Below are positions 27,134 through 42,547 of a DNA stretch of 46,092 bases, piece after piece; positions within the stretch are counted from its first letter, which is position 1, and every line of letters starts with the position of its first letter. A program made the position numbers and the translations under genes. This DNA is from a virus. Its lineage: Duplodnaviria > Caudoviricetes. Location of the stretch: positions 1-46,092 of the IMG/VR virus record IMGVR_UViG_3300020045_010465. One strand, given 5' to 3'. The notes under the pieces are model-generated. The model was not told the origin of the DNA. It saw only the letters and a list, made by a program, of their open reading frames with translations, and made no database searches.

Positions 27134-27136
27134 ACC

Positions 27137-27594: not shown

Positions 27595-27981
27595 TCATTT
27601 GGTATTGTTTAAGGTTAATTCTTCCCCAGTTAATGCAAAGTATAAGTTTTGTAGTTTATGGATATGTTTAAAATCTCCCTTTATAAAATTTTGCCCATTA
27701 CCAAAACATATTTCATATCCAGATAGATGTATAGATAATTCAGTCCCATGAATTATTATAAAATACCACTCATTAGAATGCTTAAGTTCATCAAAGCCAA
27801 ACTTTAATAACAAATTAGCATCTATTGTAATTGGTTTAATTGCGTTTAAATCATATCTACCACTGGGTAAGTGGTTTTCTTTCTTACAATCAACTAAATC
27901 GGTGCTTATTTGGTGTATAATCATATTGCCACCGTAATCATCCCATACATAATTCCCTATTCTTAATTCGTTTGCTTTCAT
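27595..27981 (-). CDS. hypothetical protein (ELRIGN...HxLQNLY family)
   Basis: paralogous to cassette ORF 33138-33608. Confidence 0.65.
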   Translation of the reverse strand: MKANELRIGNYVWDDYGGNMIIHQISTDLVDCKKENHLPSGRYDLNAIKPITIDANLLLKFGFDELKHSNEWYFIIIHGTELSIHLSGYEICFGNGQNFIKGDFKHIHKLQNLYFALTGEELTLNNTK

Positions 27982-28224
27982 GGTTTATAATGTTTAGTTC
28001 CGTTAAATGCTAAAATAACCGCTATTACTATTGATATGATGAATATGATAATCATTTTACGTTTATTTTAGATTCATAAATTTCAAACTTTTCTTCTGGT
28101 TCTTTAATCGGATAATGACTATCTATCATTTCTTGCAATGCTTGTTGTTTAGGCTCTTTTTGAAATGGTCTAAAATTAAGCATTTGATGCTCGTATAAAA
28201 TTGCTTTTTGTTCTGGAGTGTATT

Positions 28225-28464
28225 TCATAACTTTTTATTTAGGTTTAAAAGATAATACATTGATGTAATAACAGTAAGCCATAATGCAAAATTCCACATT
28301 CCACTAACTATTTTATCTAAAGATATTTCAACTGGATGACTCGCTTTAATGTGCCATCCTTCAATTATCAAGAATATAACAGTTTCTAATATCCATAATA
28401 CAAATCCTCCAATCCAAAATCTTTTAGCTAATTTCCAAAGTGTTTTTAATTCTTTATTTTTCAT
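28225..28464 (-). CDS. 2-TM membrane protein
   Basis: two hydrophobic helices. Confidence 0.55.
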   Translation of the reverse strand: MKNKELKTLWKLAKRFWIGGFVLWILETVIFLIIEGWHIKASHPVEISLDKIVSGMWNFALWLTVITSMYYLLNLNKKL

Positions 28465-28476
28465 AATTTATTTATT

Positions 28477-28512
28477 TAAAAGCCACCCGTTTTAATTGAT
28501 GGCTTTTGGTTT
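28477..28512 (-). terminator. probable terminator
   Basis: AAAAGCCA...TGGCTTTT inverted repeat. Confidence 0.4.
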
Positions 28513-28515
28513 TAT

Positions 28516-28878
28516 TTACCCAGCACAAATTCCTAACATTTCATTGAATAATCCCATAACTTCGCCATCGCCAGTAATTGCGTGAATTTTACTTTGAAGT
28601 TGTTGGATTTGATTTTCAGTAAAAGTTGGTTGTGCTGTCATTTCTTCTCTCATTTCGGTAATGAATCTATCAGCTCTTAATCCTATAACTTTTACGCTAT
28701 TTTCATAGGCATTTTGGTTTCTTGCTACATAAACAATATCCTTGGTTAGTTTTTCAACTAAATCAATTGTATCTTCCAAATTTGCAAGTCTTGTTATGTC
28801 GGTGTTGGACTCTCCAGTCGGTTCAATCATTCCGCATAATATTTTTGTAATGTCGTAAAGATTTTCTAATCTTTTCAT
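28516..28878 (-). CDS. hypothetical protein
   Basis: 120 aa ORF in operon. Confidence 0.55.
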   Translation of the reverse strand: MKRLENLYDITKILCGMIEPTGESNTDITRLANLEDTIDLVEKLTKDIVYVARNQNAYENSVKVIGLRADRFITEMREEMTAQPTFTENQIQQLQSKIHAITGDGEVMGLFNEMLGICAG

Positions 28879-28900
28879 AATTATATTTATTTAGATTATT

Positions 28901-29152
28901 TTAAATTCTGTTTGTTGGTATCGGAAAAAGCATAAAAGATTTTACGTTTATCTTTTGATTTTTAGTATGCTTTTCTAATTCTGGTTTTTCATCGTAAACT
29001 GAAACAAAAGACTTATCTATTTTTAAAGCTACTATTCCAGTTTTTTTAACCTCAACCGCAATACCTAATTTTATCATGTTTAAACCGCTTTTGTTTCTTG
29101 AATAACCGTAAGTACTACCTACGGTTATTTCGTTGCCTAGTGCGTCTGTCAT
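28901..29152 (-). CDS. hypothetical protein (SH3-like)
   Basis: MTDALGNEI.VG N-terminus. Confidence 0.55.
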   Translation of the reverse strand: MTDALGNEITVGSTYGYSRNKSGLNMIKLGIAVEVKKTGIVALKIDKSFVSVYDEKPELEKHTKNQKINVKSFMLFPIPTNRI

Positions 29153-29155
29153 TGA

Positions 29156-30001
29156 TTAAAAAGTTAACATTGGTATTAACTCATTTTCAATATATTTTCG
29201 AGAAGCTAAAACCATTTTTTCAGCTTTTTTAATATAGCTTTCATTGTATTCAAATTCGAAAACTTTTTTTCTTAAGTTCTCTGGCAAGTGGTCATAACTA
29301 AGTTCCTCTACAGCCATATCCCAATCTTCAATATCAGGTTCGTCTTTTCCTAAATCTCTTGAAATGTCCCAAGATAATTTATTTATTTGTTCTTCGCTCC
29401 CGTTTTCTAAACAATAACAAAGACTACCTTTTTTTAATCCTTTCAATTCTTGATAAACCTGTAGTTGTCCATAATAATTTTTATCAGGTTCAGTTTCAAA
29501 AAATGGAAAAGTAAAAGCATCAAACGGAACTTTGGCATCAATAACGATATCAGGTGTGTTAGTGTCATATTCCCCAGTGAAATATTCATTTTCTAATCCA
29601 TTTTCATTCTTTACCAACTCAACACCGTAATGTTTAGCAATCCTTTTAATTGCGCTTTCTTCCATCGCTTTACCTCTAGCAAGGTATTTAGACCTAATAT
29701 CTTTTTTCTTGCCTGTAATCTCAGATATAAGCCATTCTTTGCAGTATGATTTTGCACTTTCACTTAATATTATTTCATTAATCAAAGGCTTTAATCTTTC
29801 GATTTCTTTTTCGTTTTCGGGAATCTTTATGTTTTCAATTTCAAGTGCTGATTTACACTCTTTGTTTTTGAAACCATTAAGACGCTCATTTAATGATTCT
29901 TTTTTTAATAAAGCATCATCGTACTGCTCTTTATATGATTTTCCCGCGTGATTAGTCATTAATAAACCAATCTTTGAAGCCCTACATTTAAACTGTTTCA
30001 T
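29156..30001 (-). CDS. YqaJ/lambda-exonuclease-like recombination nuclease
   Basis: RAS, RG..ME..A, TGE.D, D.K and Y..QLQ.Y motifs. Confidence 0.75.
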   Translation of the reverse strand: MKQFKCRASKIGLLMTNHAGKSYKEQYDDALLKKESLNERLNGFKNKECKSALEIENIKIPENEKEIERLKPLINEIILSESAKSYCKEWLISEITGKKKDIRSKYLARGKAMEESAIKRIAKHYGVELVKNENGLENEYFTGEYDTNTPDIVIDAKVPFDAFTFPFFETEPDKNYYGQLQVYQELKGLKKGSLCYCLENGSEEQINKLSWDISRDLGKDEPDIEDWDMAVEELSYDHLPENLRKKVFEFEYNESYIKKAEKMVLASRKYIENELIPMLTF

Positions 30002-30506
30002 CTTGTAAAGTTTTTAATTGTTCTTCTGTTAAATCGTATTTTTCCAAAATAGCCTCAATAGTAGCTTTTTTATCTGTAATAGCTTTTTTTGCTCCTGCTA
30101 AGTCTTTTAATTCCACCAATGGTAAAATATCAATAGTCATTGGCACACGTTTGTTTTTTGAGGCTGTTACCAAAACACGGGTTGATTCTGGTATATGTGA
30201 AGCGTGGCTAATTCTTATCCCTCCAGTTTCTACACCCGCCCATTTAACAGAATCATCACGATAAATCGTTAATCTTCTACCGTGAAATACTAAGCTGTCT
30301 GCGCCCCATAATTGAACCAAAACTCTACGCATAGACTTACACGGCTTGAACGGCTTGTTATTATCTCCGTAAAAGTAAATAGATACGGGTTGTGCATCAT
30401 CTTCACCGCCTTTAATGTTTCTGATTTTAATTGTTTTTGAACCAGAAATTAAATCGTCTGCGTTTAATTGGTCAGACTTTGGTATAATTGTTTTTGATAA
30501 ATCCAT
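29988..30506 (-). CDS. putative ssDNA-annealing/recombination partner of the exonuclease
   Basis: PKSDQLNADDL...KPCKSMRRVL...GGIRISH; coupled to the exonuclease; function inferred from position. Confidence 0.5.
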   Translation of the reverse strand: MDLSKTIIPKSDQLNADDLISGSKTIKIRNIKGGEDDAQPVSIYFYGDNNKPFKPCKSMRRVLVQLWGADSLVFHGRRLTIYRDDSVKWAGVETGGIRISHASHIPESTRVLVTASKNKRVPMTIDILPLVELKDLAGAKKAITDKKATIEAILEKYDLTEEQLKTLQDETV

Positions 30507-30510
30507 AATC

Positions 30511-30708
30511 TTAATTTTTAATTGGTTCTACTAATTCATAATCTACATTGATACTCGATAATGGTTTGTCGAAATTTGGGTCGCTTAAACGTATTTTAAA
30601 AGCACGTTCTTTTACCTTTCGCAATTCCTTATTCAAACGTTTATTTTCTTTCTGTAAAGCCTCGATTTGATGCCTGTACATTTCTTGTAGTTGTTCTTGT
30701 GCGCTCAT
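30511..30708 (-). CDS. hypothetical coiled-coil protein
   Basis: 65 aa ORF. Confidence 0.5.
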   Translation of the reverse strand: MSAQEQLQEMYRHQIEALQKENKRLNKELRKVKERAFKIRLSDPNFDKPLSSINVDYELVEPIKN

Positions 30709-30710
30709 AA

Positions 30711-31313
30711 TTATGATTTTAAATGATTCAAATAAGCTTTATAAGATTCGAAAATAGCCTGTATTTGTTTAAATTCATCAGTACCTCTTTTTGTTGAGTA
30801 TTCTTCTGTTGAGTTAAAAAAATACTGCCACTCTTCAATAGTTTTCTTTTTACACCCTATTTGTATTTTATCTCCTAGAATAGAATGACTCCATTTGCAA
30901 AATTGGGGCATACAAGCTAATTCTTTATTTTCTGCATTACTCAGGTCTGCGCCACTCAGGTCTGCATTACTCAGGTCTGCATTACTCAGGTTTGCGTATC
31001 TCAGGTTTGCGTATCTCAGGTCTGCATTACTCAGGTCTGCATTACTCAGGTTTGCGTATCTCAGGTTTGCGTATCTCAGGTTTGCGTATCTCAGGTCTGC
31101 ATTACTCAGGTCTGCATTACTCAGGTTTGCGTATCTCAGGTTTGCGTATCTCAGGTCTGCATTACTCAGGTCTGCATTACTCAGGTTTGCGTATCTCAGG
31201 TCTGCGTCGACTTCAATAGCCTCTTTTAATGTTGTTAAAATTGAATTATTATCCGATTCGTATTCAAATAATAAATTTCCAAAAATTGATTTAATCTGTA
31301 GCTTTGTTTTCAT
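30711..31313 (-). CDS. pentapeptide repeat protein
   Basis: A(D/N)L(S/R)x repeats; C-terminal IQIGC....EEW domain. Confidence 0.9.
   Translation of the reverse strand: MKTKLQIKSIFGNLLFEYESDNNSILTTLKEAIEVDADLRYANLSNADLSNADLRYANLRYANLSNADLSNADLRYANLRYANLRYANLSNADLSNADLRYANLRYANLSNADLSNADLSGADLSNAENKELACMPQFCKWSHSILGDKIQIGCKKKTIEEWQYFFNSTEEYSTKRGTDEFKQIQAIFESYKAYLNHLKS
30931..31200. repeat. 18 x 15-bp tandem repeat (two unit types) encoding the pentapeptides
   Basis: units tctgcattactcagg and tttgcgtatctcagg, plus one variant tctgcgccactcagg. Confidence 0.95.
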
Positions 31314-31367
31314 AATTGTTATTGTTGGTTAAATTCCAAATTTTTGATTAACTTATTTTATTTTTGA

Positions 31368-31586
31368 TTAAATTAATGCTTCGTAATGCTTCTTTTCTAT
31401 TTCTTGAAATTTCAATTGCTTGTCGAAAACTTCATTTACATATTTTTCAATGTCAGGATCGATTTTGTCCTTCATTATGGTAGTTCTTAGGTACCTTCCT
31501 GTTTTAGTTCCGTTAATCTTAAAGGCTATTTTATCGGTTATAGCCTCTTTGTGGTTCAGTTTTTCGTACTTTTCTTTGATTGTCAT
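31368..31586 (-). CDS. hypothetical protein
   Basis: 72 aa ORF. Confidence 0.5.
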   Translation of the reverse strand: MTIKEKYEKLNHKEAITDKIAFKINGTKTGRYLRTTIMKDKIDPDIEKYVNEVFDKQLKFQEIEKKHYEALI

Positions 31587-31589
31587 AGG

Positions 31590-31787
31590 TTAATAATTTT
31601 CTTCTGTTACTATTTCGGTTATTCTCTCAATTACGTTAGACTTAAGCATCCAGTAAATATCAACATCGTTAACTTTTATTAATTCAGTTGACCATCCGCC
31701 TGCATAATTAGTATCTGTTTCTGGTTTATCGTAATTTCCAAAAACTTCAAAATCCACCCCCTCGTAAGTTATTCTATGTGATTCCAT
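31590..31787 (-). CDS. hypothetical protein
   Basis: 65 aa ORF, first gene after the promoter. Confidence 0.55.
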   Translation of the reverse strand: MESHRITYEGVDFEVFGNYDKPETDTNYAGGWSTELIKVNDVDIYWMLKSNVIERITEIVTEENY

Positions 31788-31809
31788 ATTTATTGTTATT
31801 TTGTTTTAG

Positions 31810-31837
31810 CAAATGTATGTATTAATTATTACATACA
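31810..31837 (-). promoter_or_regulatory. Bacteroidota -7 promoter element with overlapping palindromic operator
   Basis: minus-strand TACATTTG (TAnnTTTG) at 31810-31817; TGTATGTA-N8-TACATACA inverted repeat at 31814-31837. Confidence 0.55.
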
Positions 31838-31859
31838 CAAAATAAAAAACGTTAAATTT

Positions 31860-32042
31860 TTAAAATGGACAATATTCTTTTTTAGGCTTGGGGAGTAAAT
31901 CGCTATACTCCCTTTTTATTTTCTCCTTTATTGCATCACGAATAAATTTACCGACGTCAATGTTATAAGACTTCATTTTTTGTAAAGTACTCAACTGAAT
32001 TTCTGAAATACGAATAACCTTTGTTTTAGTGTATTTTTTCAT
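31860..32042 (-). CDS. ribbon-helix-helix-like small DNA-binding protein
   Basis: KVIRIS strand, helix, then VGKFIRDAIKEKI helix; sits at the end of the left cassette array. Confidence 0.6.
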   Translation of the reverse strand: MKKYTKTKVIRISEIQLSTLQKMKSYNIDVGKFIRDAIKEKIKREYSDLLPKPKKEYCPF

Positions 32043-32084
32043 AATTGTAATACATTTGTAGCGTGTAGCCGATAGTTAGTGGCA
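32043..32084. other. terminal hairpin-less (attI-like) site of left array
   Basis: GTTAGTGGCA at 32075 matches TGCCACTAAC at 32674; no hairpin beyond it. Confidence 0.55.
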
Positions 32085-32089
32085 ACCGC

Positions 32090-32422
32090 CTAGTTTGTGG
32101 TTAACTTTTCTATTTCATTTTTTACTTCTTTGAAAAATGCTTTTTTATCGTGATTTAAGCATCTTGCATTATAAGAATCAGTCCCTTGTTTATCATAAAG
32201 TTCTTCTCCTAATTTTTTTAAAGTTGAAATAATTTCTTCCACCGCAATTAAAGCACATTCTTTAGCTACTTTCATTTTTGATAATTCATTAAAAGCTCTT
32301 TGAGGATATATAAATTTAGATATCAACTCTTCTGCTTTCTCTTTAATTATATTATCATATTGGTGTTGTGATGCTTCAATTTGTTCATCCATTTTATTAG
32401 CCATATAATTTCCTGTATCCAT
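32090..32422 (-). CDS. cassette L1 hypothetical protein
   Basis: KEKA.EL..KF...AKECALIAVEEII...EVK.EIEKL; paralog of 35995-36255. Confidence 0.65.
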   Translation of the reverse strand: MDTGNYMANKMDEQIEASQHQYDNIIKEKAEELISKFIYPQRAFNELSKMKVAKECALIAVEEIISTLKKLGEELYDKQGTDSYNARCLNHDKKAFFKEVKNEIEKLTTN

Positions 32423-32424
32423 AA

Positions 32425-32652
32425 TTATTTTTGATTTGTTGGTTTAGGAATATTTGTCCATTGCAAGTCGTTTTCATATTCAGGAGTAAATATTATATCT
32501 GAATCAGTAACTTGCCAGAACAAATTTTTAAAATCATAATATCCTATAAATAATTCTCCGTCAAAAAGAATCAATACATCAATGCTAAATGCTCCATTGC
32601 ATTCAATATCTTTAAGTGGATATTCTAATGCTGTTTTTAATTTTAAACTCAT
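32425..32652 (-). CDS. cassette L1 hypothetical protein (DUF551-like)
   Basis: ATG start MSLKLK at 32652; S.DVLI...IGYY...W...W..IP pattern. Confidence 0.55.
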   Translation of the reverse strand: MSLKLKTALEYPLKDIECNGAFSIDVLILFDGELFIGYYDFKNLFWQVTDSDIIFTPEYENDLQWTNIPKPTNQK

Positions 32653-32673
32653 AATTTCTTGTTTTACATGGTA

Positions 32674-32813
32674 TGCCACTAACAATCGCTATATTTCAGC
32701 GTTGTGATTTGGCTTAATTTAATGTTTTGTTTCTTTTTTTTTAATTTGTCCTTATCCGAAGAACGGTTTTGTGTCAGTCCACGCCGAAATTATAGCGATG
32801 GGCGTTATAAGCC
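32674..32813. repeat. attC-like hairpin site L1
   Basis: AAC-a-ATCGCTATATTTCAGCGT...ACGCCGAAATTATAGCGAT-gggc-GTT; 120-nt spacer. Confidence 0.85.
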
Positions 32814-33002
32814 ATTTACCAAGCCTGCGTAAACAGACCACCAATACACCTGAAAAAAGAAACTTGGATAAAAAAGCCACCATTGAGTAGGCGAAATCCA
32901 TTTGTAGCTTGGTAACGAAAGTGTGTTTTTACCAAACAAGGTTGCAATTTTTAGTAAATTAAGGATTACTATTCCTGACGTGAAAATGAATAAATACTGC
33001 AT
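32805..33002 (-). CDS. cassette L2 small membrane protein
   Basis: 2 hydrophobic segments; TAA stop is part of the TAAC core; arms GTTATAAGCC/GGCTTATAAC. Confidence 0.6.
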   Translation of the reverse strand: MQYLFIFTSGIVILNLLKIATLFGKNTLSLPSYKWISPTQWWLFYPSFFFQVYWWSVYAGLVNGL

Positions 33003-33044
33003 TGTTTTTTTAATTAAATTTTTAAGCCAAACACGAATAAAAAC

Positions 33045-33146
33045 GGCTTATAACAGTGGTTTGGCAAAATACCGCCACAAGCCTTTGTGCTAAATTTTAA
33101 CATTATGCAAGGCGGTACTTCGCCAAGCCAGATAACGTTAGTGTTC
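33045..33146. repeat. attC-like hairpin site L2
   Basis: TGGTTTGGCAAAATACCGCC...GGCGGTACTTCGCCAAGCCA; 82-nt spacer. Confidence 0.85.
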
Positions 33147-33608
33147 AGTTAAACACGTATTCGTTAAACTACAATTTTCAAAAAAATAATAGACGTTTTG
33201 TAATTCATGTACGTATTTTATCTCTTTAAATTCATTAACTTCAATAATGAATTCTTGAATATCTTCGTTAGGCATGTGAATTTTAAAATCGCCTTTTTTA
33301 AAAACTTTACTAGCTTGTTGTTCTTGAGGGTCACTGGTGAAATTGCTTGAAAATTTAAATTTATAAAACCATTCCTGCATTAATGGAATAGGCATAATTT
33401 CATTAATTGAATAAAAAATATCAATTCTATTATTCAACCCTATTTTGATATTATTTGAAAGGTCTGTTATTATAGAACTAATTGTTCCTACTTCTCTATG
33501 ATTTCCGTTGTAATGTATAAAATTTCCAATGCGTAAATTAGCAACCGAAACACTAACAACCGTTTGTAGTGATTGAGCATCGTATTGAATTTTGTTATCT
33601 GTTTTCAT
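33138..33608 (-). CDS. cassette L3 protein (LRIGN family), start codon inside hairpin loop
   Basis: ANLRIGN...HELQNVYY; the GTT core encodes Val18. Confidence 0.65.
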   Translation of the reverse strand: MKTDNKIQYDAQSLQTVVSVSVANLRIGNFIHYNGNHREVGTISSIITDLSNNIKIGLNNRIDIFYSINEIMPIPLMQEWFYKFKFSSNFTSDPQEQQASKVFKKGDFKIHMPNEDIQEFIIEVNEFKEIKYVHELQNVYYFFENCSLTNTCLTEH

Positions 33609-33682
33609 CTGTTTTTATTTGTGTTTAATTTATAAAATTAGCTTATTTTTTCAACCACTACAAGCGGCAAGCGTTAGCATCA
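33548..33682. repeat. attC-like hairpin site L3
   Basis: CCGTTTGTAGTGATTGA...TCAACCACTACAAGCGG; 115-nt spacer. Confidence 0.85.
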
Positions 33683-33691
33683 ATGCTACGT

Positions 33692-34039
33692 TTACTGGTA
33701 ATCGATGATTTCTGCTATTAACTCAGCTTTTGTGAAAATCACTTTTCTATCACTTGGATACCATAATTTTGGTAATAGCGAATTAATCTTTTTAAAATCA
33801 ATGTTTGCATCAAGAATTTTTGCTATTCTTTCTTGGTCTTCATCCATATTTTCAGAAAATCTATCTTCATCAAATACTCTTTCTGCAATAGTTTCTCCGT
33901 TTAGAAATCCAATATTTTCTAAATCACATTCGTAGGCTTCAACTGTAAAATCATCAGTTTGTTCTACTAAAAATTCATATTCAAGATGTTCTGCTATATC
34001 TTGAACTTCGCTAAAAAATCTGTCGTCAATTGCGTACAT
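33692..34039 (-). CDS. cassette L4 acidic hypothetical protein
   Basis: 115 aa, Asp/Glu-rich. Confidence 0.65.
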   Translation of the reverse strand: MYAIDDRFFSEVQDIAEHLEYEFLVEQTDDFTVEAYECDLENIGFLNGETIAERVFDEDRFSENMDEDQERIAKILDANIDFKKINSLLPKLWYPSDRKVIFTKAELIAEIIDYQ

Positions 34040-34064
34040 AAAAATCTGTTTTTAAGAACCGCAC

Positions 34065-34202
34065 TAATACTAACACAGGTTTGCAAAAATGGCAAGTTCA
34101 GGTTTAATTTATAGTTTGTTTTGTGTCTGTAATGTTTTGGCAAAATCGAAAATTAAGGCTTGCTTTTTTGCCACTTCTGCAAGCCACGAACCGTTAAGCA
34201 CA
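34065..34202. repeat. attC-like hairpin site L4
   Basis: GGTTTGCAAAAATGGCAA...TTGCCACTTCTGCAAGCC; 118-nt spacer. Confidence 0.85.
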
Positions 34203-34205
34203 AGT

Positions 34206-34655
34206 TTAAGAGCGACCGTCAAAAACGACAATCATACTATCTTTCGTGCCACTTTGTTCTTTTCCTTTTGCGTTTAATGGTATGTAGAAATTTCCATTTT
34301 TATCTAACTTACCAAATTTTATTCTGCCTTTTAAAAATTCAATTTCAGTTGCGTTTGGTTTGATCCATTCATGAAATAATTTTGTACTTGTAGATACTGG
34401 AATAAGGAAAACACAAACTTTTCCTTTTTTCATTTCTTCAACTCCTTTTTTTACAAATTCCTCTTTTAGTTTTTGGCTATAAGGTGGATTTACAAAATTT
34501 GAGTTTCCCCATTCAATTTTTAATCCATCGTTTAAAATTTCACCTTCATTATAAGGGCAAGGATCAAAATCGAAATTAAAACGTTTATTCAATTCCTCGT
34601 ATAATTTTGGAGGAGTTGCATAATTATCATCGTTATTTATGTGAATTTTTTTCAT
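34206..34655 (-). CDS. cassette L5 phage DNA N6-adenine methyltransferase (Dam-like, short type)
   Basis: ATP, F.FDFDPCP, FVNPPYS, LIP..T.T..FH and GRIKF motifs. Confidence 0.85.
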   Translation of the reverse strand: MKKIHINNDDNYATPPKLYEELNKRFNFDFDPCPYNEGEILNDGLKIEWGNSNFVNPPYSQKLKEEFVKKGVEEMKKGKVCVFLIPVSTSTKLFHEWIKPNATEIEFLKGRIKFGKLDKNGNFYIPLNAKGKEQSGTKDSMIVVFDGRS

Positions 34656-34677
34656 ACTAAATTTTAAATTAAAAACC

Positions 34678-34764
34678 TGTGCTTAACAAGTGTTTTGCTC
34701 AATTGTGCCGAAATTAGTTTGCGGTTAGGCACAACTGAAGCAAAGCACTCGAACGTTATCAGGA
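34678..34764. repeat. attC-like hairpin site L5
   Basis: AGTGTTTTGCTCAATTGTGCC...GGCACAACTGAAGCAAAGCACT; 67-nt spacer. Confidence 0.85.
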
Positions 34765-34778
34765 ATACTAAGATTCCG

Positions 34779-35015
34779 TTATTTATGAAATTTAGATTTT
34801 GGCTTGTCGAATATTTGCTCCTGAATAGGTTCGGGTTCATTAAAGCATTTTAATTTTAACGCTTCATTTTTGAAGTAATCGTTTTCTCGTTTTTCTTTCA
34901 TTTCTTCTGGAGTTACAATAATAATTCCTCTTTCTTTTTCAAGAACGCTATCAATTGCACTTTGTAAACAAGTTCTTCCGTGATCTACGTGACCAATTAT
35001 CATTATTTTTTTCAT
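34779..35015 (-). CDS. cassette L6 small protein with EF-Tu-like G1 motif
   Basis: IIGHVDHGRT at N-terminus; arms GTTATCAGGA/TCCTGATAAC. Confidence 0.6.
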   Translation of the reverse strand: MKKIMIIGHVDHGRTCLQSAIDSVLEKERGIIIVTPEEMKEKRENDYFKNEALKLKCFNEPEPIQEQIFDKPKSKFHK

Positions 35016-35044
35016 AACATATTTGTTTTTTAATTAATTCGTAC

Positions 35045-35182
35045 TCCTGATAACAGCGTGTTGTTTTCAGGCTTGGATTATTTTTTGTTTTTTTAATTGG
35101 GGCGAATTCGCCATAATTAGAATCCTTGTTGTTATAAGTGATAATTCACGCCCGAAAAGCAACACGCGAACCGTTATGCATC
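35045..35182. repeat. attC-like hairpin site L6
   Basis: GCGTGTTGTTTTCAGGC...GCCCGAAAAGCAACACGC; 118-nt spacer. Confidence 0.85.
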
Positions 35183-35350
35183 AGCTTGGTTGGAACGGCT
35201 AAATATTTCCTTAATACCATTTTGAACTTTACAAAATGTGCATTTTACTACCTGAATACTTCTACTGTATTTTGATTGTTTAGTAATAACAGTCACGGTA
35301 TTTTTAGAACCGCAATAACTACAATCTACTTGTTGTTTAATTTCTGCCAT
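35174..35350 (-). CDS. cassette L7 58-aa zinc-ribbon protein (below ORF-track cutoff)
   Basis: MAEIKQQVDCSYCGSK...KCTFCKVQNG...NQADA*, TAA stop in TAAC core. Confidence 0.65.
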   Translation of the reverse strand: MAEIKQQVDCSYCGSKNTVTVITKQSKYSRSIQVVKCTFCKVQNGIKEIFSRSNQADA

Positions 35351-35371
35351 AATTTGTGATTTAAAAAGCCG

Positions 35372-35510
35372 AACGGCTAACAGCGTGTTGTTTTCAGGCT
35401 TGGATTAGTTGTTTTTTGAATAGTCAAGGATTTCTTGACAGTTGGTTTTGTACTCGTTGTTATCGGTGATTATTAACGCCCGAAAAGCAACACGCAAAAC
35501 GTTACCCATG
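35372..35510. repeat. attC-like hairpin site L7
   Basis: same stem as L6; 119-nt spacer; abuts the terS stop codon. Confidence 0.85.
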
Positions 35511-35842
35511 ACTAGCTTCCAAGAACTGCTTAAAAATATCTTGCTGACCGGAATCAGTTTCTTTTTGTTCAACTAATTTGCCTCGGTCCTTGAAACTAAA
35601 TCCGAAATGTTTAGAAAGCTCATTGATTTCCTTTATCATTTTTTCTCGAATAGTAACGTAACCGGATACATTTGTGGCACCGCCTTTGAAAGTTTGTATC
35701 AAACCACCATGAAATCCTTTATTTCTAATTTCATTTTCGGATTTAGTTTCAAGGACCGAGGCAAATTAGTTGAACAAAAAGAAACTGATTCCAGTCAGCA
35801 AGATATTTTTAAGCAGTTCTTAGAAGCTAGTCATGGGTAACG
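35500..35842. repeat. 108-bp inverted repeat (35500-35607 / 35735-35842), 2 mismatches, 127-nt spacer
   Basis: direct comparison; both copies encode FGFSFKDRGKL...FLEASHG*. Confidence 0.95.
35502..35740 (-). pseudogene. 5'-truncated terminase small subunit, P27-family-like (C-terminal ~78 aa)
   Basis: ENEIRNKGFHGGLIQTFKGGATNVSGY...LSKHFGFSFKDRGKL; the terS-like frame is interrupted at the fold-back junction; context upstream of HK97-type terL. Confidence 0.6.
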
Positions 35843-35972
35843 GTTCGCTAGTATGATTTCGGCTTGATAAAATGCAAGACCTTATTTCGGATTAAAAAAA
35901 GTAAAAACAAATACAAAAATTAATAACCTAAAGACCGATACAAAAGCTGAAATATACTAGCTGTTAGGGAAT
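35832..35972. repeat. attC-like hairpin site R1
   Basis: GCTAGTATGATTTCGGCTT...AAGCTGAAATATACTAGC; 121-nt spacer. Confidence 0.85.
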
Positions 35973-35994
35973 CGGCTTTATAACACCAAATATC

Positions 35995-36255
35995 ATGGAC
36001 GTAAGGAAAAAAGCAGTTGATTTAATAAAGAAATTTGACGTAAAGTATTACTACAAATTAACTAAAGGACAATTACCAGTATCAATGCATAATTCAGTTA
36101 TCAAAGAATGTATTTTAAATTCTATTAACGAAATAATAACTGAATTATCAAAAGTGCATTATAGAACTGATGTGACTGATATTTTAGAAAATTGGCAAGA
36201 AGTAAAAGTAATAATTGAGCAGGATTTTGACCAGTTATACCAAGCTGTTCCCTAA
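35995..36255 (+). CDS. cassette R1 hypothetical protein
   Basis: paralog of 32090-32422; TAA stop in TAAC core. Confidence 0.65.
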   Translation: MDVRKKAVDLIKKFDVKYYYKLTKGQLPVSMHNSVIKECILNSINEIITELSKVHYRTDVTDILENWQEVKVIIEQDFDQLYQAVP

Positions 36256-36384
36256 CGGCGGATGCTACACGATGGCTGGGACAAGCACACATCCAGACTT
36301 CGGATAATGACAGATTATAAAAGTGCAAAACCAACTTTAAATTTAACCCGAAACCCAGCTATTGTGTAGCATATGTTACCAGTA
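36247..36384. repeat. attC-like hairpin site R2
   Basis: ATGCTACACGATGGCTGGG...CCCAGCTATTGTGTAGCAT; 118-nt spacer. Confidence 0.85.
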
Positions 36385-36403
36385 GTGTTTTATACTAAAT
36401 ATT

Positions 36404-36592
36404 ATGAAAGAAGTAAGAGCAAATTGTTATGTAGAAGTTTTATGTACTTGCCCTAATTGTGGCTATGGATTAGACGTTTTGGATGAAGTAAGAGAGGTTA
36501 TGGATGACGACCACAGAGCAAGCGGAATAGATGTAGAAGTTACTTGTGAAGATTGCAAAGAAACGTTTTTAGTTACCGATGTCGATTTTTAA
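36404..36592 (+). CDS. cassette R2 zinc-ribbon protein
   Basis: CPNC...CEDC. Confidence 0.7.
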   Translation: MKEVRANCYVEVLCTCPNCGYGLDVLDEVREVMDDDHRASGIDVEVTCEDCKETFLVTDVDF

Positions 36593-36595
36593 CAT

Positions 36596-36734
36596 TACTG
36601 GTAACGGTCTTTTGCTAGTGGAAGTGGCTTGAATTAAGCACCGATGCCAGCAAGAAAAGACCAGTACTTAAGTAATCCTTGATAGTTCAAACACAAAACC
36701 ATCTAGCCATTTTTACTAGCAAATGTTAGTAGCT
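36596..36734. repeat. attC-like hairpin site R3
   Basis: TTTGCTAGTGGAAGTGGCT...AGCCATTTTTACTAGCAAA; 119-nt spacer. Confidence 0.85.
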
Positions 36735-36779
36735 GGACGGATTAATTAAACAAAAATTAACTTATAAAAATTAAATATT

Positions 36780-37031
36780 ATGTTTTGGAATAGAAAAGAA
36801 AAAGTAGTTATAGGGAGTCTTGGTCCGTTATTGATTCCTCCAATTCCCGCAAAAAGAGAATTTGAAACAATGTTGGAGATATTGAAAGATGCTGAAAAGT
36901 ATGATAATGGAAATGATATTGAAGTTAGAAATGCTTTACTTACAACTTTATGTGAACACATAGAAGTTTTTAAAGCCAAAAAACAAGAAGCACACAGGGA
37001 TGGAAGTATTTCTCTAAAAGCAGATTCGTAG
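36780..37031 (+). CDS. cassette R3 hypothetical protein
   Basis: fills the cassette between arms GTTAGTAGC/GCTACTAAC. Confidence 0.6.
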   Translation: MFWNRKEKVVIGSLGPLLIPPIPAKREFETMLEILKDAEKYDNGNDIEVRNALLTTLCEHIEVFKAKKQEAHRDGSISLKADS

Positions 37032-37034
37032 TCT

Positions 37035-37176
37035 TGCTACTAACGTTCCCTTGCTAAACGAGGTTAGGGATAAAATAAAAAACAGATTTTCGATTAATAA
37101 CTAATACCAACAAAAATGAAACAGACCACAGATAATGCCCAAATGCCCGAATCTTGTTTAGCAAGTGTTGGCAGTA
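37035..37176. repeat. attC-like hairpin site R4
   Basis: CTTGCTAAACGAGGTT...AATCTTGTTTAGCAAG; 122-nt spacer. Confidence 0.85.
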
Positions 37177-37388
37177 GTTATTCTCTTTATCAGGGTACTG
37201 AATGGAACGATGAAAAATTTGATTTATTAATAGTAGTTAATTTTGAATTAAAAAAGATAAACAGGATTGACCTTGAAAATAAAGTAACTAAAATAATTGA
37301 TATTCCTGAAACAGGTATTCCAGTTCATTTTAAAAAAATAAGTAAATCAAAATTTAACAAATTGGTTGAGAAGTACCTATTTGTATAA
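37116..37388 (+). CDS. cassette R4 hypothetical protein, start codon inside hairpin loop
   Basis: GTT core at 37167 encodes Val18. Confidence 0.6.
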   Translation: MKQTTDNAQMPESCLASVGSSYSLYQGTEWNDEKFDLLIVVNFELKKINRIDLENKVTKIIDIPETGIPVHFKKISKSKFNKLVEKYLFV

Positions 37389-37389
37389 T

Positions 37390-37530
37390 TACTGCCAACG
37401 CTCCCGTGCTTGTGTACAGTAGCGTACAAGTACAAGACAGTCTTAAACTTCGGCAAACAGTTTAAAAAATTGCCAAAACTTAAAATTAATCACCAAGCAA
37501 AGCTATTGACACAAACACGTGTTATAAGAA
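37390..37530. repeat. attC-like hairpin site R5
   Basis: CGTGCTTGTGTACAGTAGC...GCTATTGACACAAACACG; 121-nt spacer. Confidence 0.85.
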
Positions 37531-37553
37531 GTAGCGGGTTTTAAAACAAAAAT

Positions 37554-37763
37554 ATGATAGAAATTGTAAACGTAAAAGACAGATTACCAAATGTAGAATG
37601 TGGTAGTTATTTAGTTTATGCTCCTGAAAGTTTCCCTAAAAATAGTAGGTGGTTAGTTGCGGAGTATTATGATGATGTTAAAGGTTTTTATAGCGAAAGT
37701 TCTGAAAACTTTTTAGAAGATGTTACGCATTGGTGCGAATTGCCTAAAGAACCGCTAACGTAG
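37554..37763 (+). CDS. cassette R5 DUF551-like protein
   Basis: VKDRLP...YLV...VTHWCELP.EP. Confidence 0.7.
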   Translation: MIEIVNVKDRLPNVECGSYLVYAPESFPKNSRWLVAEYYDDVKGFYSESSENFLEDVTHWCELPKEPLT

Positions 37764-37767
37764 CTAT

Positions 37768-37909
37768 TTCTTATAACGTTTTGCGGCTATACGAGGTTGT
37801 TGCCGAATTAAAAACAGACCTCACAAATACAAACTAATACTTAAAATTATGACTGATATTTCAAAAAATACCGAATTGCAACAATCTTGTATAACCGCTG
37901 TTATAGGCA
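37768..37909. repeat. attC-like hairpin site R6
   Basis: GCGGCTATACGAGGTTGTTGC...GCAACAATCTTGTATAACCGC; 122-nt spacer. Confidence 0.85.
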
Positions 37910-38085
37910 GTCCTAATGAGTTAGAGCCTGTTTTAGCATTTATAAATCACATTGGTGAATTAGGGTTATCTGAATGGTACGAGGTGGTTTATTATGCCGA
38001 TAAATGGTATTCTTATGCAGGAAGTAAAACATTTGAAGATGGCGAAAAAGTCATTAGATGGAAGTACGCTAAGGATTGCCTATAA
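37849..38085 (+). CDS. cassette R6 hypothetical protein, start codon inside hairpin loop
   Basis: GTT core at 37900 encodes Val18; TAA stop in TAAC core. Confidence 0.65.
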   Translation: MTDISKNTELQQSCITAVIGSPNELEPVLAFINHIGELGLSEWYEVVYYADKWYSYAGSKTFEDGEKVIRWKYAKDCL

Positions 38086-38138
38086 CGTTCCCATTTATTC
38101 AACCCACAAAACCACCAACAAAACTAACACTTAAGCTT
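38072..38138. other. attI-like terminal site between last cassette and integrase
   Basis: AGGATTGCCTATAAC arm followed by non-palindromic sequence up to the integrase ATG. Confidence 0.6.
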
Positions 38139-38939
38139 ATGAATTCCGCAAAGTACATCCAAGACTATGAGAGAGATTTGAGATTCATTCACTTCTCTAT
38201 TGAAACGATAAAAAACTACAGTAGTCAAATAAAGTTATTCCTGGCATATTTTAAAGAAAAAGACAGTCCTAAACATATTTCTGCAGATGAAATCAAGGAT
38301 TATCTGTTGAATGCTAAAGAAGTCAATTCGCAAAATGCAATGCATTCTGCAATTAAAAAGTTTTACATTTTGACGATCAAGCAAAACAGGAAATTCGAAT
38401 ACATAACGTATGCCAAAAAAGAAAAGAAAATTCCACTTGTAATTGATATGGATGAGTTGGTTTTGATGATTGATAAAATCGAAAACAAAAAACACAAAGC
38501 GATAATTGCTTTAACATCTTCGGTTGGATTGCGAGTTTCTGAAGTTTTGAATTTAAAGTTGGAGCATATTAGCACACCGCTGATGCAAATTAGAATCATT
38601 GGTGCCAAAGGCAAAAAAGACCGTATAGTGCCACTAACTGAAAAGGTCAGAGAAATTATTCGCATTTACTATGTGGAATATCTGCCAAAAGAATATTTAT
38701 TTAATGGTCAAGATAAGCCACAATATTCACGTGGAAGCTGTAATCAGGTGGTTAAAAAATGCCTTGGAAAAAAATACCACATGCACACGTTACGGCATAG
38801 TGCAGCAACCGGTTTATTTGAAAAAGGAACAGATCTTAAATTAATAGGTGATTTATTAGGGCAAACATCATTAAAAACGACTTCAATTTATGCGCATACG
38901 TCGAGCAAAAAATTAAAAAGTTTGCCTTTTGGTATTTAA
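38139..38939 (+). CDS. tyrosine recombinase (integron-integrase-like N-terminal SAM domain, no I2 insertion)
   Basis: S..TIKNY...IK.FL.YF N-terminus; GLRVSE, KG.KDR, HTLRHS, LLGQ, TT.IYAH; ATG at 38139 (MNSAKY) preferred over TTG at 38076. Confidence 0.9.
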   Translation: MNSAKYIQDYERDLRFIHFSIETIKNYSSQIKLFLAYFKEKDSPKHISADEIKDYLLNAKEVNSQNAMHSAIKKFYILTIKQNRKFEYITYAKKEKKIPLVIDMDELVLMIDKIENKKHKAIIALTSSVGLRVSEVLNLKLEHISTPLMQIRIIGAKGKKDRIVPLTEKVREIIRIYYVEYLPKEYLFNGQDKPQYSRGSCNQVVKKCLGKKYHMHTLRHSAATGLFEKGTDLKLIGDLLGQTSLKTTSIYAHTSSKKLKSLPFGI

Positions 38940-38999
38940 ATTACAAAATGAGGTTTCCCGTAAAGAAATAAAAAAACAAAGAAATAGGTTTGGGCGCTT

Positions 39000-39221
39000 T
39001 CAAGGCAATAATTCTGAAACATCAATATTTAAAGCTTTACAAATTTTAAAAAGGGATCCAATAGTAGTATTGATTTCGCCACGTTCAATTCTTCCTATTT
39101 GGTTTATTGGAATGTTGGCATCATGAGAAAGTGTGGCTTGCGAAAGATGCTTAGACAATCGTTTTTCTCTAAGTTTTTGCCCAACATTTTTGATAAATAT
39201 TTTTTCGCCTTTTTCTAACAC
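39000..39221 (-). CDS. XRE-family HTH regulator
   Basis: G.KLREKR....LSQ..L.....I....IGRIERGE.N.T...L..I..AL. Confidence 0.85.
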   Translation of the reverse strand: MLEKGEKIFIKNVGQKLREKRLSKHLSQATLSHDANIPINQIGRIERGEINTTIGSLFKICKALNIDVSELLP

Positions 39222-39235
39222 GCATCAAAAGTGCA

Positions 39236-39271
39236 GTTATATTTTAAAATAACATAACACAAATATGTGTT
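39236..39271. promoter_or_regulatory. two adjacent palindromes in the divergent XRE/terL gap (operator candidates)
   Basis: GTTAT-N8-ATAAC (39236-39253) and AACACA-N4-TGTGTT (39256-39271). Confidence 0.4.
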
Positions 39272-39311
39272 TTTTGTAATCGTTTTACCGCATTAAAAAC
39301 AAAATCAATCA

Positions 39312-41042
39312 ATGAAACCAACACAAAAACAGCTTGAATCCGTTCCTTTTCAGTATGCAAATGACGTGCGTACTGGTAAAATTATAGTTGGAAAACGCAT
39401 CAAGCAAGCCGTGAAGCGTTTTTACTCCTGGGTAGAAAATGCTGAAATAGATGGTTTTATTTTGGACCATGAAAAAGGAATGCGCATCCTGAGCTTCTTC
39501 CCTACTTTTTTAAACCACACCATAGGTAAACTAGCGGGAAAACCTTTCGTTTTGGCACCATTCCAGCAATTCACCATGTATAATATTTTTGGTTGGATAA
39601 ATGCAAAAACAGGATTCCGCAGAATCAACACTGTTTACGATAAAAGAGCTAAAAAAAACGGGAAAACCGCTGAAATGGCGGGACTTGCATTATACGCCCT
39701 TTCTTTCGATTTAGAAATGGAAGCGCAAGTGTATGTTGGGGCCACAAAGGAAGAGCAAGCGCGTATTTGCTGGAAACAGGCGAAAATGTACATTGAAAGT
39801 CCGGTGGCGAATCCTGCCTTGCGTAAAATGGGGTTTTACTGCCTTCAAAAGATAATCGGATTCAAAAATACAGGATCTACCATGATGCCATTGGGTGGTG
39901 ATTCAAAAACACAGGATGGTATCAACTGCCATGTGGGAATAATAGACGAATACCACGCCCATAAAGATGATTCGGTAAAAGAAAACCTTGAATCATCTAC
40001 CGTACAAAGAGCGCAGCCGTTAATTTACCAAATCACAACCGCAGGTGCAAATGTGCAATCTGCCTGCAAAAACTATGAAGATTCAGTTATTGAAGTTTTG
40101 GAAGGTCGAAATATAGATCACTCGCTTTGGATAATGATTCACGACATAGACCAGGAAGATTTAGAAACGCCTGAAAGTTGGGAAAACAAGGATTTATGGA
40201 TAAAAGCAAATCCGCTTTTGGGAAATGGTTTGGCTTTAGAAGGAATCGAAAAGGAATTTGTAAAAGCATTAAATCAGCCTTCTAAAATTCGAAATTTCAA
40301 GACTAAAAACTTGAATATGTGGGTAGATCAGCAGTTCGACTGGATTCAAACAGAGATTTGGAATAAAAACAAAGTCGATGCAATCCCGATGGAAAAATTC
40401 AAAACATTAGGTTCTTATGCGGGTTTAGATTTATCAAAAACACGAGATTTAACAGCTTTTGGAGCGTTGTCAGAGCCGGATGAAAATGATGATCGATTTG
40501 TTAAAATTTGGTTTTTTATGCCAAAAGATACAATTATAGTTCGATCTAAAGAGGATAGAATACCATATCAATATTGGGCTGATAAAGGGTATATAATCGC
40601 TACACCTGGAAATGTAGTTGATTATAATATTGTAGAAGATACGATAAGAAAAGAATGGCCGTCGCTAAACATTATTAGAATGGGTTATGACACATATAAT
40701 GCGACACAAATCACTCAAAACCTTCATGAAGATGGCTATGTAGTATCAGAATTTAGTCAAGCAATAGGAACGATTTCAACGCCTACAAAAGAGTTTGAAA
40801 GATTAGTACTTAAAGGCAATATAAAACACGATGGAAATCCGGTGTTGTCATGGATGCTAGCTTCATGTGATATTTATACTGATGCTAATTTAAATATCAA
40901 AGTTCACAAAGGTCGTTCCTCAATCAATGGTCGCCGTGTCGATGGTATCATTGCTCTAATAATAGCTTTAGGCGAATCTATGTCAACGCCTGAATCAAAC
41001 GAAAGTATCTACAACCGGGAAGGTACAGAATTCACTTGCTAA
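39312..41042 (+). CDS. terL: terminase large subunit, Terminase_1/HK97-like (phage B)
   Basis: AKKNGKT Walker A, IIDEYH Walker B, ITTAG, GLDLS...DLTA, RVDGIIA. Confidence 0.95.
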   Translation: MKPTQKQLESVPFQYANDVRTGKIIVGKRIKQAVKRFYSWVENAEIDGFILDHEKGMRILSFFPTFLNHTIGKLAGKPFVLAPFQQFTMYNIFGWINAKTGFRRINTVYDKRAKKNGKTAEMAGLALYALSFDLEMEAQVYVGATKEEQARICWKQAKMYIESPVANPALRKMGFYCLQKIIGFKNTGSTMMPLGGDSKTQDGINCHVGIIDEYHAHKDDSVKENLESSTVQRAQPLIYQITTAGANVQSACKNYEDSVIEVLEGRNIDHSLWIMIHDIDQEDLETPESWENKDLWIKANPLLGNGLALEGIEKEFVKALNQPSKIRNFKTKNLNMWVDQQFDWIQTEIWNKNKVDAIPMEKFKTLGSYAGLDLSKTRDLTAFGALSEPDENDDRFVKIWFFMPKDTIIVRSKEDRIPYQYWADKGYIIATPGNVVDYNIVEDTIRKEWPSLNIIRMGYDTYNATQITQNLHEDGYVVSEFSQAIGTISTPTKEFERLVLKGNIKHDGNPVLSWMLASCDIYTDANLNIKVHKGRSSINGRRVDGIIALIIALGESMSTPESNESIYNREGTEFTC

Positions 41043-41061
41043 CTAAAATTGATTAATAATT

Positions 41062-41322
41062 ATGAACGCAGTCGAAGAAAATGCCCTTAGAATTTACATT
41101 GCTAAAATTGAAAAACAAAATGAGCAAATGCGACAGCTCTCTTCTCGAAAAGGTTTTTATGCCGCCTATTTTATAGAACTGAAAACCGCAAAATCCAACA
41201 AAGAAGCTTTTGACACCGTCAATGAAATCTATCATGAGCTATTTGGGAATTATCGCTACTCAGATTGGAATTCCTTCAAAGTCATGACAAATTATTACAA
41301 CCATCAAAAACAATCAAAATGA
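41062..41322 (+). CDS. hypothetical protein
   Basis: 86 aa; FG..RYS...SF motif. Confidence 0.6.
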   Translation: MNAVEENALRIYIAKIEKQNEQMRQLSSRKGFYAAYFIELKTAKSNKEAFDTVNEIYHELFGNYRYSDWNSFKVMTNYYNHQKQSK

Positions 41323-41492
41323 AAATAGCAATTATTATTCTCTTTACATTCTTACTCGCATTTGCCACCAGTGCGTTATTCGAATTTAATTTTATAACTA
41401 CAAATCCTGTGCGTTATGCGCTCGTGGTTTTTTTAATCAGCATCGAATTACTAACTGGATTTTTTTATATAAAATCTGAAATAAAAAATTAA
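41319..41492 (+). CDS. small 2-TM membrane protein
   Basis: MKIAIIILFTFLLAF start overlapping the previous stop (ATGA). Confidence 0.55.
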   Translation: MKIAIIILFTFLLAFATSALFEFNFITTNPVRYALVVFLISIELLTGFFYIKSEIKN

Positions 41493-41493
41493 A

Positions 41494-41646
41494 ATGTCAG
41501 AAAATCTTAAAGTAGAAAATATTGCAAAAGCAATAAGGCTGTTGCCAAAACCTAAAACTTACCAAGCTACAACTGTCACAGTAGCAGTAGGAAAACTAAA
41601 ATACACCTTCGAAAAAATAAAAGACGAATGGTATTATAAGTTCTAG
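41494..41646 (+). CDS. 50-aa hypothetical protein
   Basis: MSENLKVENIAKAIRLLPKP...EWYYKF*, starts 1 nt after the previous stop. Confidence 0.45.
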   Translation: MSENLKVENIAKAIRLLPKPKTYQATTVTVAVGKLKYTFEKIKDEWYYKF

Positions 41647-41669
41647 TCATTGCGAGGTACGAAGCAATC
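41646..41669. repeat. REP-like small palindromic element
   Basis: GTCATTGCGAGGTACGAAGCAATC resembles the gtcattgcgag...gaagcaatc interspersed repeat family (recalled, not searched). Confidence 0.5.
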
Positions 41670-41699
41670 GCATAATGTTAAACTAATAAAAATATAAAA

Positions 41700-41891
41700 A
41701 TGCAGAAATCAGAAATTATAAAAAAACTTCTTAGTATAAAACAGGAAGTAATAAAATTAGGTATTATAGCCGTGTCGGATATACAAGTTCCTGTAGACAG
41801 TCAAATTATTGAATTGCAGTTGTTTTCGAATCTTGAAGATGCATTTACTGAAGCTATTGAATCTGTTAATAATAATCATAAATTTAAATAA
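41700..41891 (+). CDS. hypothetical protein
   Basis: 63 aa ORF. Confidence 0.5.
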   Translation: MQKSEIIKKLLSIKQEVIKLGIIAVSDIQVPVDSQIIELQLFSNLEDAFTEAIESVNNNHKFK

Positions 41892-41893
41892 TA

Positions 41894-42130
41894 GTGAAAA
41901 TATTCCTTCAATCATTTTTCCAAATTGGATTAGTAGCCATAAACACGATGTTAATCTCGAAAGGGATTTACATCGGTGTTTTTATAGTGTCATTTTTAAT
42001 TAGCTTGCTTTGGGCGTTCAATGTTTCTAAAGTGGCAATATCAACAATAAAACAAAAATTAATCTACGCATTTGGCGCTGGATGTGGAGCGGTGATTGGA
42101 TTAGTTTTAATATCTTTAATCTTTAAATAA
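41894..42130 (+). CDS. small 3-TM membrane protein
   Basis: hydrophobic; W.FNV.K...YA.GA..G motif. Confidence 0.6.
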   Translation: MKIFLQSFFQIGLVAINTMLISKGIYIGVFIVSFLISLLWAFNVSKVAISTIKQKLIYAFGAGCGAVIGLVLISLIFK

Positions 42131-42133
42131 AAA

Positions 42134-42427
42134 ATGATGAAACCAAAATTAATAAATATAGACCTTTCTGAAATTACAAAAAAACTTGAATTGATTCAAG
42201 GCGAAATGTCAGAAGATATTATTTCAAAATTAAAAGAAGCGTCTATTTTTTTGCCTGATTTTGATACTTTTGAACGTGAGATGGTTCAGGTTCCTATTAT
42301 AGAACAGCCAGAAGTTTTGGTTAACAATTCTGTTTATCCTTCATTAAATACTTTTTTTACTAAAGTAATTACTTTTAGAAAAAACCATAAAAGTAAAACG
42401 TGGGTATTCTATTCAAAAAACTTTTAA
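42134..42427 (+). CDS. hypothetical protein
   Basis: 97 aa ORF. Confidence 0.5.
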   Translation: MMKPKLINIDLSEITKKLELIQGEMSEDIISKLKEASIFLPDFDTFEREMVQVPIIEQPEVLVNNSVYPSLNTFFTKVITFRKNHKSKTWVFYSKNF

Positions 42428-42547
42428 AACAAAAAATCCGAGCTAATCCGCTTAATCCGTAAAATCCACGGACCGCTAACAAAGTTAAATACTTTAACCA
42501 CTTAAAAAGCATCGTTCAAATACTTTTACACCTAAATCGATGGTGTA

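Follow-up and report, generated by a model that had tools for sequence, protein, structure and literature searches.

We analysed a viral contig of 46,092 nucleotides (nt), taken in full and referred to as the window (Duplodnaviria; Caudoviricetes; IMG/VR record IMGVR_UViG_3300020045_010465). Our focus is three small genes, A, B and C, that probably begin inside DNA hairpins resembling the attC recombination sites of integrons. Within positions 32680-37903 there are 13 TAAC/CAAC...GTTR hairpins, 7 on the minus strand and 6 on the plus strand. Only 1 such call was made in 276,552 nt of shuffled window. Together with small genes, the hairpins form two arrays, and the right array ends next to a tyrosine recombinase gene. 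The AAC and GTT motifs of each hairpin are called cores, and coding sequence beyond the GTT core is called a body. Rfam gave zero matches up to E=1 within 26000-42500, so no known RNA family was identified there.

As the initial annotation described, genes A, B and C each read as an open frame from an ATG in a hairpin loop, 51 nt 5' of GTT. The translations given for them were reproduced. Nucleotides 52-54 are GTT in every case (GTTA, GTTG and GTTA for A, B and C, respectively), giving Val18. Ser13 and Ser21 are also common to all three proteins. Downstream of the core, no in-frame ATG, GTG or TTG appears before codon 58 of 156 in gene A, 83 of 90 in gene B and 46 of 78 in gene C, where the first one is found. 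This sequence check identified no usable start downstream of GTT. A paralog of gene A, with which it shares phrog_10066, begins MKANELRIGN and has no leader. In the paralog nothing precedes the domain but the initiating Met, so the domain of gene A requires a start further upstream. The hairpin detector made no call from 9933 to 32680, the region holding the paralog. In gene B, the second loop ATG has a weaker context than the ATG at 51 nt. Of the 13 hairpins, only these three carry a frame-0 ATG from which the reading frame stays open as far as the core. Ranked by context score among all window ATGs, the three loop ATGs fall in the 91st, 89th and 96th percentiles. Shine-Dalgarno-like words are rare in the window's genes (2 of 35). 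Low Shine-Dalgarno use and the loop ATG scores would fit A-rich translation initiation, as reported for Bacteroidetes in the part of PMC6847099 available to us.

Table 1. Positions of genes, hairpins and other features in the window.
Feature	Position	Strand
attC-like hairpin; ATG (33608) and codons 1-18 of gene A	33554..33676	-
gene A (156 aa); body belongs to phrog_10066 and begins at residue 23	33138..33608	-
attC-like hairpin; ATGs 51 and 24 nt before GTTG; gene B front end	37041..37170	+
gene B, 90 aa, no family	37116..37388	+
attC-like hairpin; gene C ATG (37849)	37774..37903	+
gene C, 78 aa, phrog_23756	37849..38085	+
putative attI-like half site; AAC 56 nt 5' of recombinase start; minus strand G|TTATAGG	38083..38138	-
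tyrosine recombinase, 266 aa, PF00589 and PF13495, XerA/D-like	38139..38939	+
left array, 7 hairpins and small genes	32680..35504	-
left hairpins	32680-32807, 33051-33140, 33554-33676, 34071-34196, 34684-34758, 35051-35176, 35378-35504	-
Dam-family methylase, left-array cargo	34206-34655	
right array, 6 hairpins and small genes	35838..38086	+
right hairpins	35838-35966, 36253-36378, 36602-36728, 37041-37170, 37396-37524, 37774-37903	+
DUF551 gene, right-array cargo	37554-37763	
inverted duplicate of small-terminase 3' end, joins both arrays	35480..35862	.
non-cassette paralog of gene A; own Met immediately before domain	27595..27981	-

We next consider a larger set of sites. In total, 347 were called in 235 loci (L numbers) plus the window. 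Removal of sites with a spacer offset outside 2-5 (47), duplicates (19), isolated sites (68), opposite-type sites (9) and near-duplicates (2) left 202; counts below use these 202-204 non-redundant array sites in gene polarity. An open reading frame (ORF) of at least 35 codons, running from a loop ATG through the core, occurs in 52, 17 and 2 of 204 sites in frames 0, +1 and +2, respectively. Bodies were classed as start-less without reference to the hairpin, and 35 of 37 such bodies have an in-frame loop ATG. Random pairing (5000 trials) gave a mean of 11.1 with all hairpins and 13.9 with long hairpins; the maximum was 26. With the window excluded, and only ATG-bearing hairpins drawn, 32 of 34 bodies matched, compared with a mean of 16.2 and a maximum of 25.

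Reading frame is also compensated between relatives. Within one hairpin family (91% identical), the ATG is 41 nt from the core in L001 and 42 nt in L008, and each distance fits the frame of its own body. This 1-nt difference switches the frame of the hairpin to suit each body, and the leader peptides differ. Similarly, one body (93%) follows a frame +1 leader in L073 and a frame 0 leader in L184. In L001, a methylase-like body starts at the core, and its own first Met falls within a conserved N-terminal stretch, which we take to be a recognised motif of such enzymes. Could the loop ORFs be untranslated all the same, with rare downstream starts or pseudogenes and gene callers that over-extend upstream? 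Chance does produce open ATGs in AT-rich loops; hairpins before genes with their own start have one in 39, 23 and 30 of 150 cases, by frame. The excess of frame matches, the compensation between relatives and the L001 body all speak against this explanation, which we consider very improbable. It is likely, judging from the sequences, that the hairpin gives a start codon and first residues to bodies with no start of their own.

The sites have further properties of attC. They combine attC-type RYYYAAC/GTTRRRY cores with complementary cassette ends, and form imperfect hairpins with strand asymmetry. The spacer offset is +3 or +4 in 225 of 347 sites. Body ends are complementary at 6.5 of 9 nt, compared with 3.6 for the far flank of the same hairpin (n=159), a measure independent of the detector. 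Such complementary ends are the signature of integron-type cassettes. For instance, body B (37166-37400) has the inverted ends GTTGGCAGTAGTTAT and ATAATTACTGCCAAC, and the stop codon of gene A is the TAA of the next site. Larger sites also exist. In Polaribacter phage P12002L (L236, 30965-31330), the annotated gp37 starts within a hairpin of ~200 nt; ~45 residues precede its Val junction, and the core region is translated as Val-Gly-Ser-Ser. Front ends as large as a domain may be encoded by such long-loop sites.

One reading, which builds on the initial annotation, makes the site a standard socket, comprising a start region of fixed length and a functional, conserved S-x4-V-x2-S tag. In its favour, all three window genes have 51 nt and S13/V18/S21, and leaders occur on unrelated bodies. 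In the loci beyond the window, ATG-to-GTT distances in frame 0 vary from 33 to 108 nt, with 51 nt in 3 of 47. Three draws of equal distance have a 0.9-2.3% chance under this wider distribution, and the agreement was noticed post hoc. The motif is no more constant; outside the window it occurs at 3 of 47 read-through sites, and it is present in 7 of 72 Val-junction homologs of protein C. At residue -5, the window's Ser13, the 47 read-through sites mostly have Leu (31), with Phe in 6 and Ser in 5. Leu predominates owing to the DNA, since 96% of sites carry T at position -15. Ser at +3 is found at 30 of 47 read-through sites but also at 64 of 142 sites without read-through. Therefore, it reflects the outer GCAGT box, and the motif translates DNA boxes. 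Val at the junction is the core by definition. Protein C has 98 homologs, of which 95 were anchored and 72 have the junction Val. Leaders of these 72 are 12-73 residues long and fall into 30 groups; 10 are 17 residues long. Furthermore, the same hairpin is read in two frames, and hairpins mostly travel with their own downstream gene. A socket with a functional tag is thus very improbable. The distance and residue distributions rule out the 51-nt spacing and S-x4-V-x2-S as special features. Their identity in A, B and C is nothing special; it is the hairpins and the in-frame loop ATGs that exceed chance.

Sites and genes have an unusual relative orientation. The coding strand pairs better in 160 of 204 sites, versus 26 for the opposite case. 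It has the form TAACG...TGTTA, with the longer spacer first. Bottom strands of published attC sites have the same form, according to the supplement of PMC9892861, and the part of PMC5027507 available to us states that integrases cut the bottom strand at AAC. Hence, genes here lie on the bottom-form strand, rather than on the top strand with attC at the 3' end. Viewed from the other strand, the right arm has the canonical order of divergent recombinase, G|TT half site and cassettes, with the genes inverted. This layout recurs. A site of this type lies within 5 kb upstream of the recombinase in 34 of 36 loci with related recombinases. Near these 36 recombinases, 122 sites are upstream in gene polarity and 1 is reversed; 3 are downstream. 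Polaribacter phages Freya_10 (L014) and Danklef_5 (L015) also have same-type sites upstream of recombinase genes. The Danklef_5 recombinase is annotated in pieces, and isolates of the Freya and Danklef series vary in record length.

To define what moves with what, we compared breakpoints in 469 pre-filtered site pairs. The hairpin was kept in 0 of 13 pairs with a common upstream flank and in 12 of 21 with a common downstream flank. A further 105 pairs share the hairpin alone and 330 share nothing. Expressed as independent groups, the hairpin was kept in 0 of 8 upstream-shared and 8 of 16 downstream-shared cases; in the other 8 of these 16, the body is paired with a different hairpin. The 0 of 8 groups rule out the canonical arrangement, in which the hairpin goes with the gene upstream of it. 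Pairs that share the upstream flank stay identical for 4-9 nt past the AAC edge of the site and then diverge (13 of 13 pairs). Where the body is shared, identity reaches back 5-14 nt into the arm at the GTT end. Thus, like an integron cassette, the mobile unit has its breakpoints at the cores.

Individual cases were found among the loci and in DNA contigs of 7 of 24 runs. The hairpin and gene A (33136-33676, 1 difference) recur as a single block, differently flanked, in a run X6 contig of 1578 nt. The homolog P0100 carries the gene A body on another leader. Body B recurs in L028 (92%), where both neighbouring hairpins differ, and a hairpin similar to 37041-37170 has other flanks in runs X2, X6 and X13. 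The gene C hairpin (37783-37904) is 100% identical in L027, and bodies on both sides differ. The left spacer of the L027 copy (2880-3017) is 8 nt longer than in the window, and a run X2 contig also breaks at 37783. The fourth base of GTTR travels with the body, as seen for GTTG/CAAC in both the window and L028, and hairpin leaders occur on unrelated bodies. From these alignments, the usual cassette is the hairpin plus the downstream gene, with crossover at AAC. The GTT joint is exchanged too, by what we infer to be recombination. The initial annotation envisaged a portable initiation region. This holds for the start codon and first residues, which are seen on unrelated bodies, but not for the fixed spacing or the conserved tag. 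It also envisaged a site serving captured sequence. Here a correction is needed, since the hairpin is the cassette's own leader and is only occasionally re-paired.

Recombination at GTT need not involve the adjacent enzyme. The loop starts could be real and the re-pairing due to short-homology recombination, by a phage recombinase or template switching, or to de novo cassette creation. Identity of 5-14 nt into the arm would suffice for microhomology. Moreover, integron integrases prefer the bottom strand by orders of magnitude, according to the available part of PMC5027507. The same text records that some natural attC sites do recombine the top strand, at far lower rates. Clustering of breakpoints at the core, and the fourth base that goes with the body, also count against short homology. 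So do recent exchanges, in which hairpins are 96-100% identical and both flanks differ. Short-homology exchange is a real possibility, although less likely than not.

The right array ends with TAAC (38083) ahead of the recombinase gene. Similarity to relatives starts at 38076-38093, at AAC, and DNA upstream differs. A constant AAC with variable upstream DNA is as expected of an insertion site, and we regard this as a putative attI-like half site. An L box and direct repeats, as features of attI, were not identified. The recombinase is closest to archaeal XerA structures. It scores 115.9 bits, in two stretches, against the integron integrase model TIGR02249 (cut-off 265). Residues 170 to 210 (40 residues) align to IntI4 residues 173 to 261 (88 residues). 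Hence, ~48 residues of IntI4, corresponding to the IntI-specific additional domain, are absent between the aligned blocks. Clusters of attC sites called CALINs are defined by having no integrase nearby. There is no IntI here, yet a non-IntI recombinase adjoins the right array.

The window contains two sets of terminase and head genes, which point outward from the centre and meet at the inverted duplicate of the small-terminase 3' end. The small-terminase gene is matched as far as 35738-35740 by L003, L008 and L009, and by two contigs from runs X1 and X3, all of which then diverge. None of the matches listed includes a piece crossing ~35740. Because relatives diverge there, the contig is probably a fold-back assembly chimera of two phages, joined near 35740. 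Gene A would then belong to a different arm from genes B and C. Could the mosaic joins themselves be assembly artefacts at repeats? The probable chimera shows that misassembly may have occurred, and in metagenome graphs the arms of hairpins form branch points of high depth. However, only 5-14 nt are shared at joins, below assembly word length. Fusions are in frame across 72 proteins from several sources, and the annotated gp37 of cultured P12002L begins within a long hairpin and reads on across its core. Hence, we find artefactual joins very unlikely. The best cultured-phage matches are Cellulophaga and Polaribacter phages, and the closest genome match is a Bacteroidota metagenome-assembled genome (MAG; 85%). 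These matches point to a Bacteroidota-type host group.

Some observations concern single genes. The small-terminase stop codon is the TAA of the first site's core (35502-35504). In L003 (9150-9620), an array lies between the small-terminase gene and the recombinase and large terminase. A C5 cytosine methylase (23357-24394) is outside the array, unlike the Dam-family methylase, and a pentapeptide-repeat protein with a 15-nt tandem repeat is encoded at 30711-31313. Pfam and NCBIfam gave no match for genes A, B or C. For gene A, no viral locus was confirmed among 6 candidates, and there were 3 protein matches, one being gene A itself. The equivalent locus search found one for gene B. AlphaFold predicts a small beta domain in protein C from about residue 28. 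Low confidence for residues 1-16 is a weak pointer to disorder, the alignment being mixed there.

Taken together, the data make it probable that the window carries an integron-like array from a Bacteroidota-type phage, in which the hairpin loop gives start-less bodies a start codon and a 14-26-residue linker. The following steps are proposed. The A-rich loop would provide the start, and the linker would be read through the right arm into the body. Cleavage at AA|C of hairpins folded from the coding strand would be carried out by the small tyrosine recombinase next to the array. The hairpin and downstream gene would then move as a unit and insert at the half site before the recombinase. More rarely, a body would be joined to a different hairpin through an exchange at G|TT, in which the other strand likely recombines, and selection would keep joins that restore frame. 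The sequence of the leader peptide is likely of minor importance, Val18 and Ser21 being set by DNA boxes. The system might also be a two-ended machine. In that case, the minimal recombinase would act at both cores, and start-bearing front modules and start-less bodies would be separate mobile parts. Front modules would range from 14 to >70 residues, some of them domain-sized, and the preceding hairpin would switch bodies on or off. We consider this quite possible, although not what we would expect.

Several points weigh against the proposed integron-like array. The detector demands AAC/GTT and has an upper length of 150 nt, so long-loop sites escape it. Loop ATG contexts score 1.4-4.0, compared with an in-sample mean of 4.25 for the window's other genes, and the base at -3 of the gene A loop ATG is C. 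As isolated DNA, two of the three hairpins of genes A, B and C fold no better than shuffles (z -1.4 and -1.6). The independent groups are few (8 and 16) and come from assemblies, where repeats can make false joins. The recombinase is without the IntI insertion. It also has Gln242, where all nine aligned relatives have His; we presume that this is a catalytic position. Consequently, the window's copy may be impaired. Finally, P12002L_attC1, the one site of this form with a published test, was the sole site of six not recombined by IntI1 (PMC9892861).

If correct, our interpretation means that one and the same attC-type sequence is both a recombination site and a gene's 5' end, and that site-specific recombination makes in-frame fusions of phage proteins. 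New phage proteins could then be built by shuffling hairpin front ends and bodies. In addition, attC-like hairpins would be handled by a recombinase without a domain thought necessary for integron activity. This would bear on the evolution of integrons from Xer-like enzymes and on the origin of cassettes. Common N-termini of small Bacteroidota phage proteins would be explained as translated DNA boxes, not as a protein motif.

A literature search, with most subscription papers out of reach, found no description of a layout with hairpin-borne starts. The nearest phage counterparts are CALINs in phage genomes with methyltransferase cargo (Qi et al. 2023, PMC9892861). Among these, P12002L_attC1 lies on the coding strand with the form of the present sites. 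P12002L_attC2, which IntI1 recombined, was not counted as a member; it is without AAC and on the other strand. The parts of this paper examined mention neither a dedicated recombinase nor inverted polarity, nor start codons within sites, and 'start codon' has 0 occurrences in its main text. ORF-11 and ORF-17 in attI1, short ORFs inside attC and the fused gcuF1-blaOXA-28 are also known, from the available part of PMC8876359. As here, a recombination site bears a translation start for a cassette lacking one. Those examples mostly couple via a short ORF or stem from attC loss. In contrast, the intact hairpin here would encode the protein N-terminus, at roughly a quarter of the sites (52 of 204, frame 0).

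Cellular Bacteroidota-type arrays were found in L233 and L234 (Bacteroidales MAG chromosome) and in L089, L091 and L118 (metagenome contigs). They have similar 123-127-nt hairpins and related recombinases. They differ in that the site follows the gene in most cases, as in canonical polarity, and in that the array lies on the downstream side of a recombinase gene with the same orientation. A near-identical cassette with a reverse-strand 66-aa ORF is repeated in L233 (10209-10409 and 10623-10823) and L234 (11139-11339); the other genes of both Bacteroidales MAG arrays are in ordinary polarity.

Integron arrays (IntI, attI, attC; strand selectivity as in Nivina et al. 2016, PMC5027507) provide a further comparison. 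The likeness extends to AAC/GTT cores, an imperfect hairpin with an unpaired spacer, complementary cassette ends, a better-folding bottom strand and crossover at AAC. A tyrosine recombinase also adjoins the putative attI-like half site. By sequence, the array works like an integron array but departs from one in the IntI insertion and in gene polarity. The recombinase dispenses with that insertion, and joins are seen at both cores. The site precedes the gene on the bottom-form strand, and so can encode the gene start.

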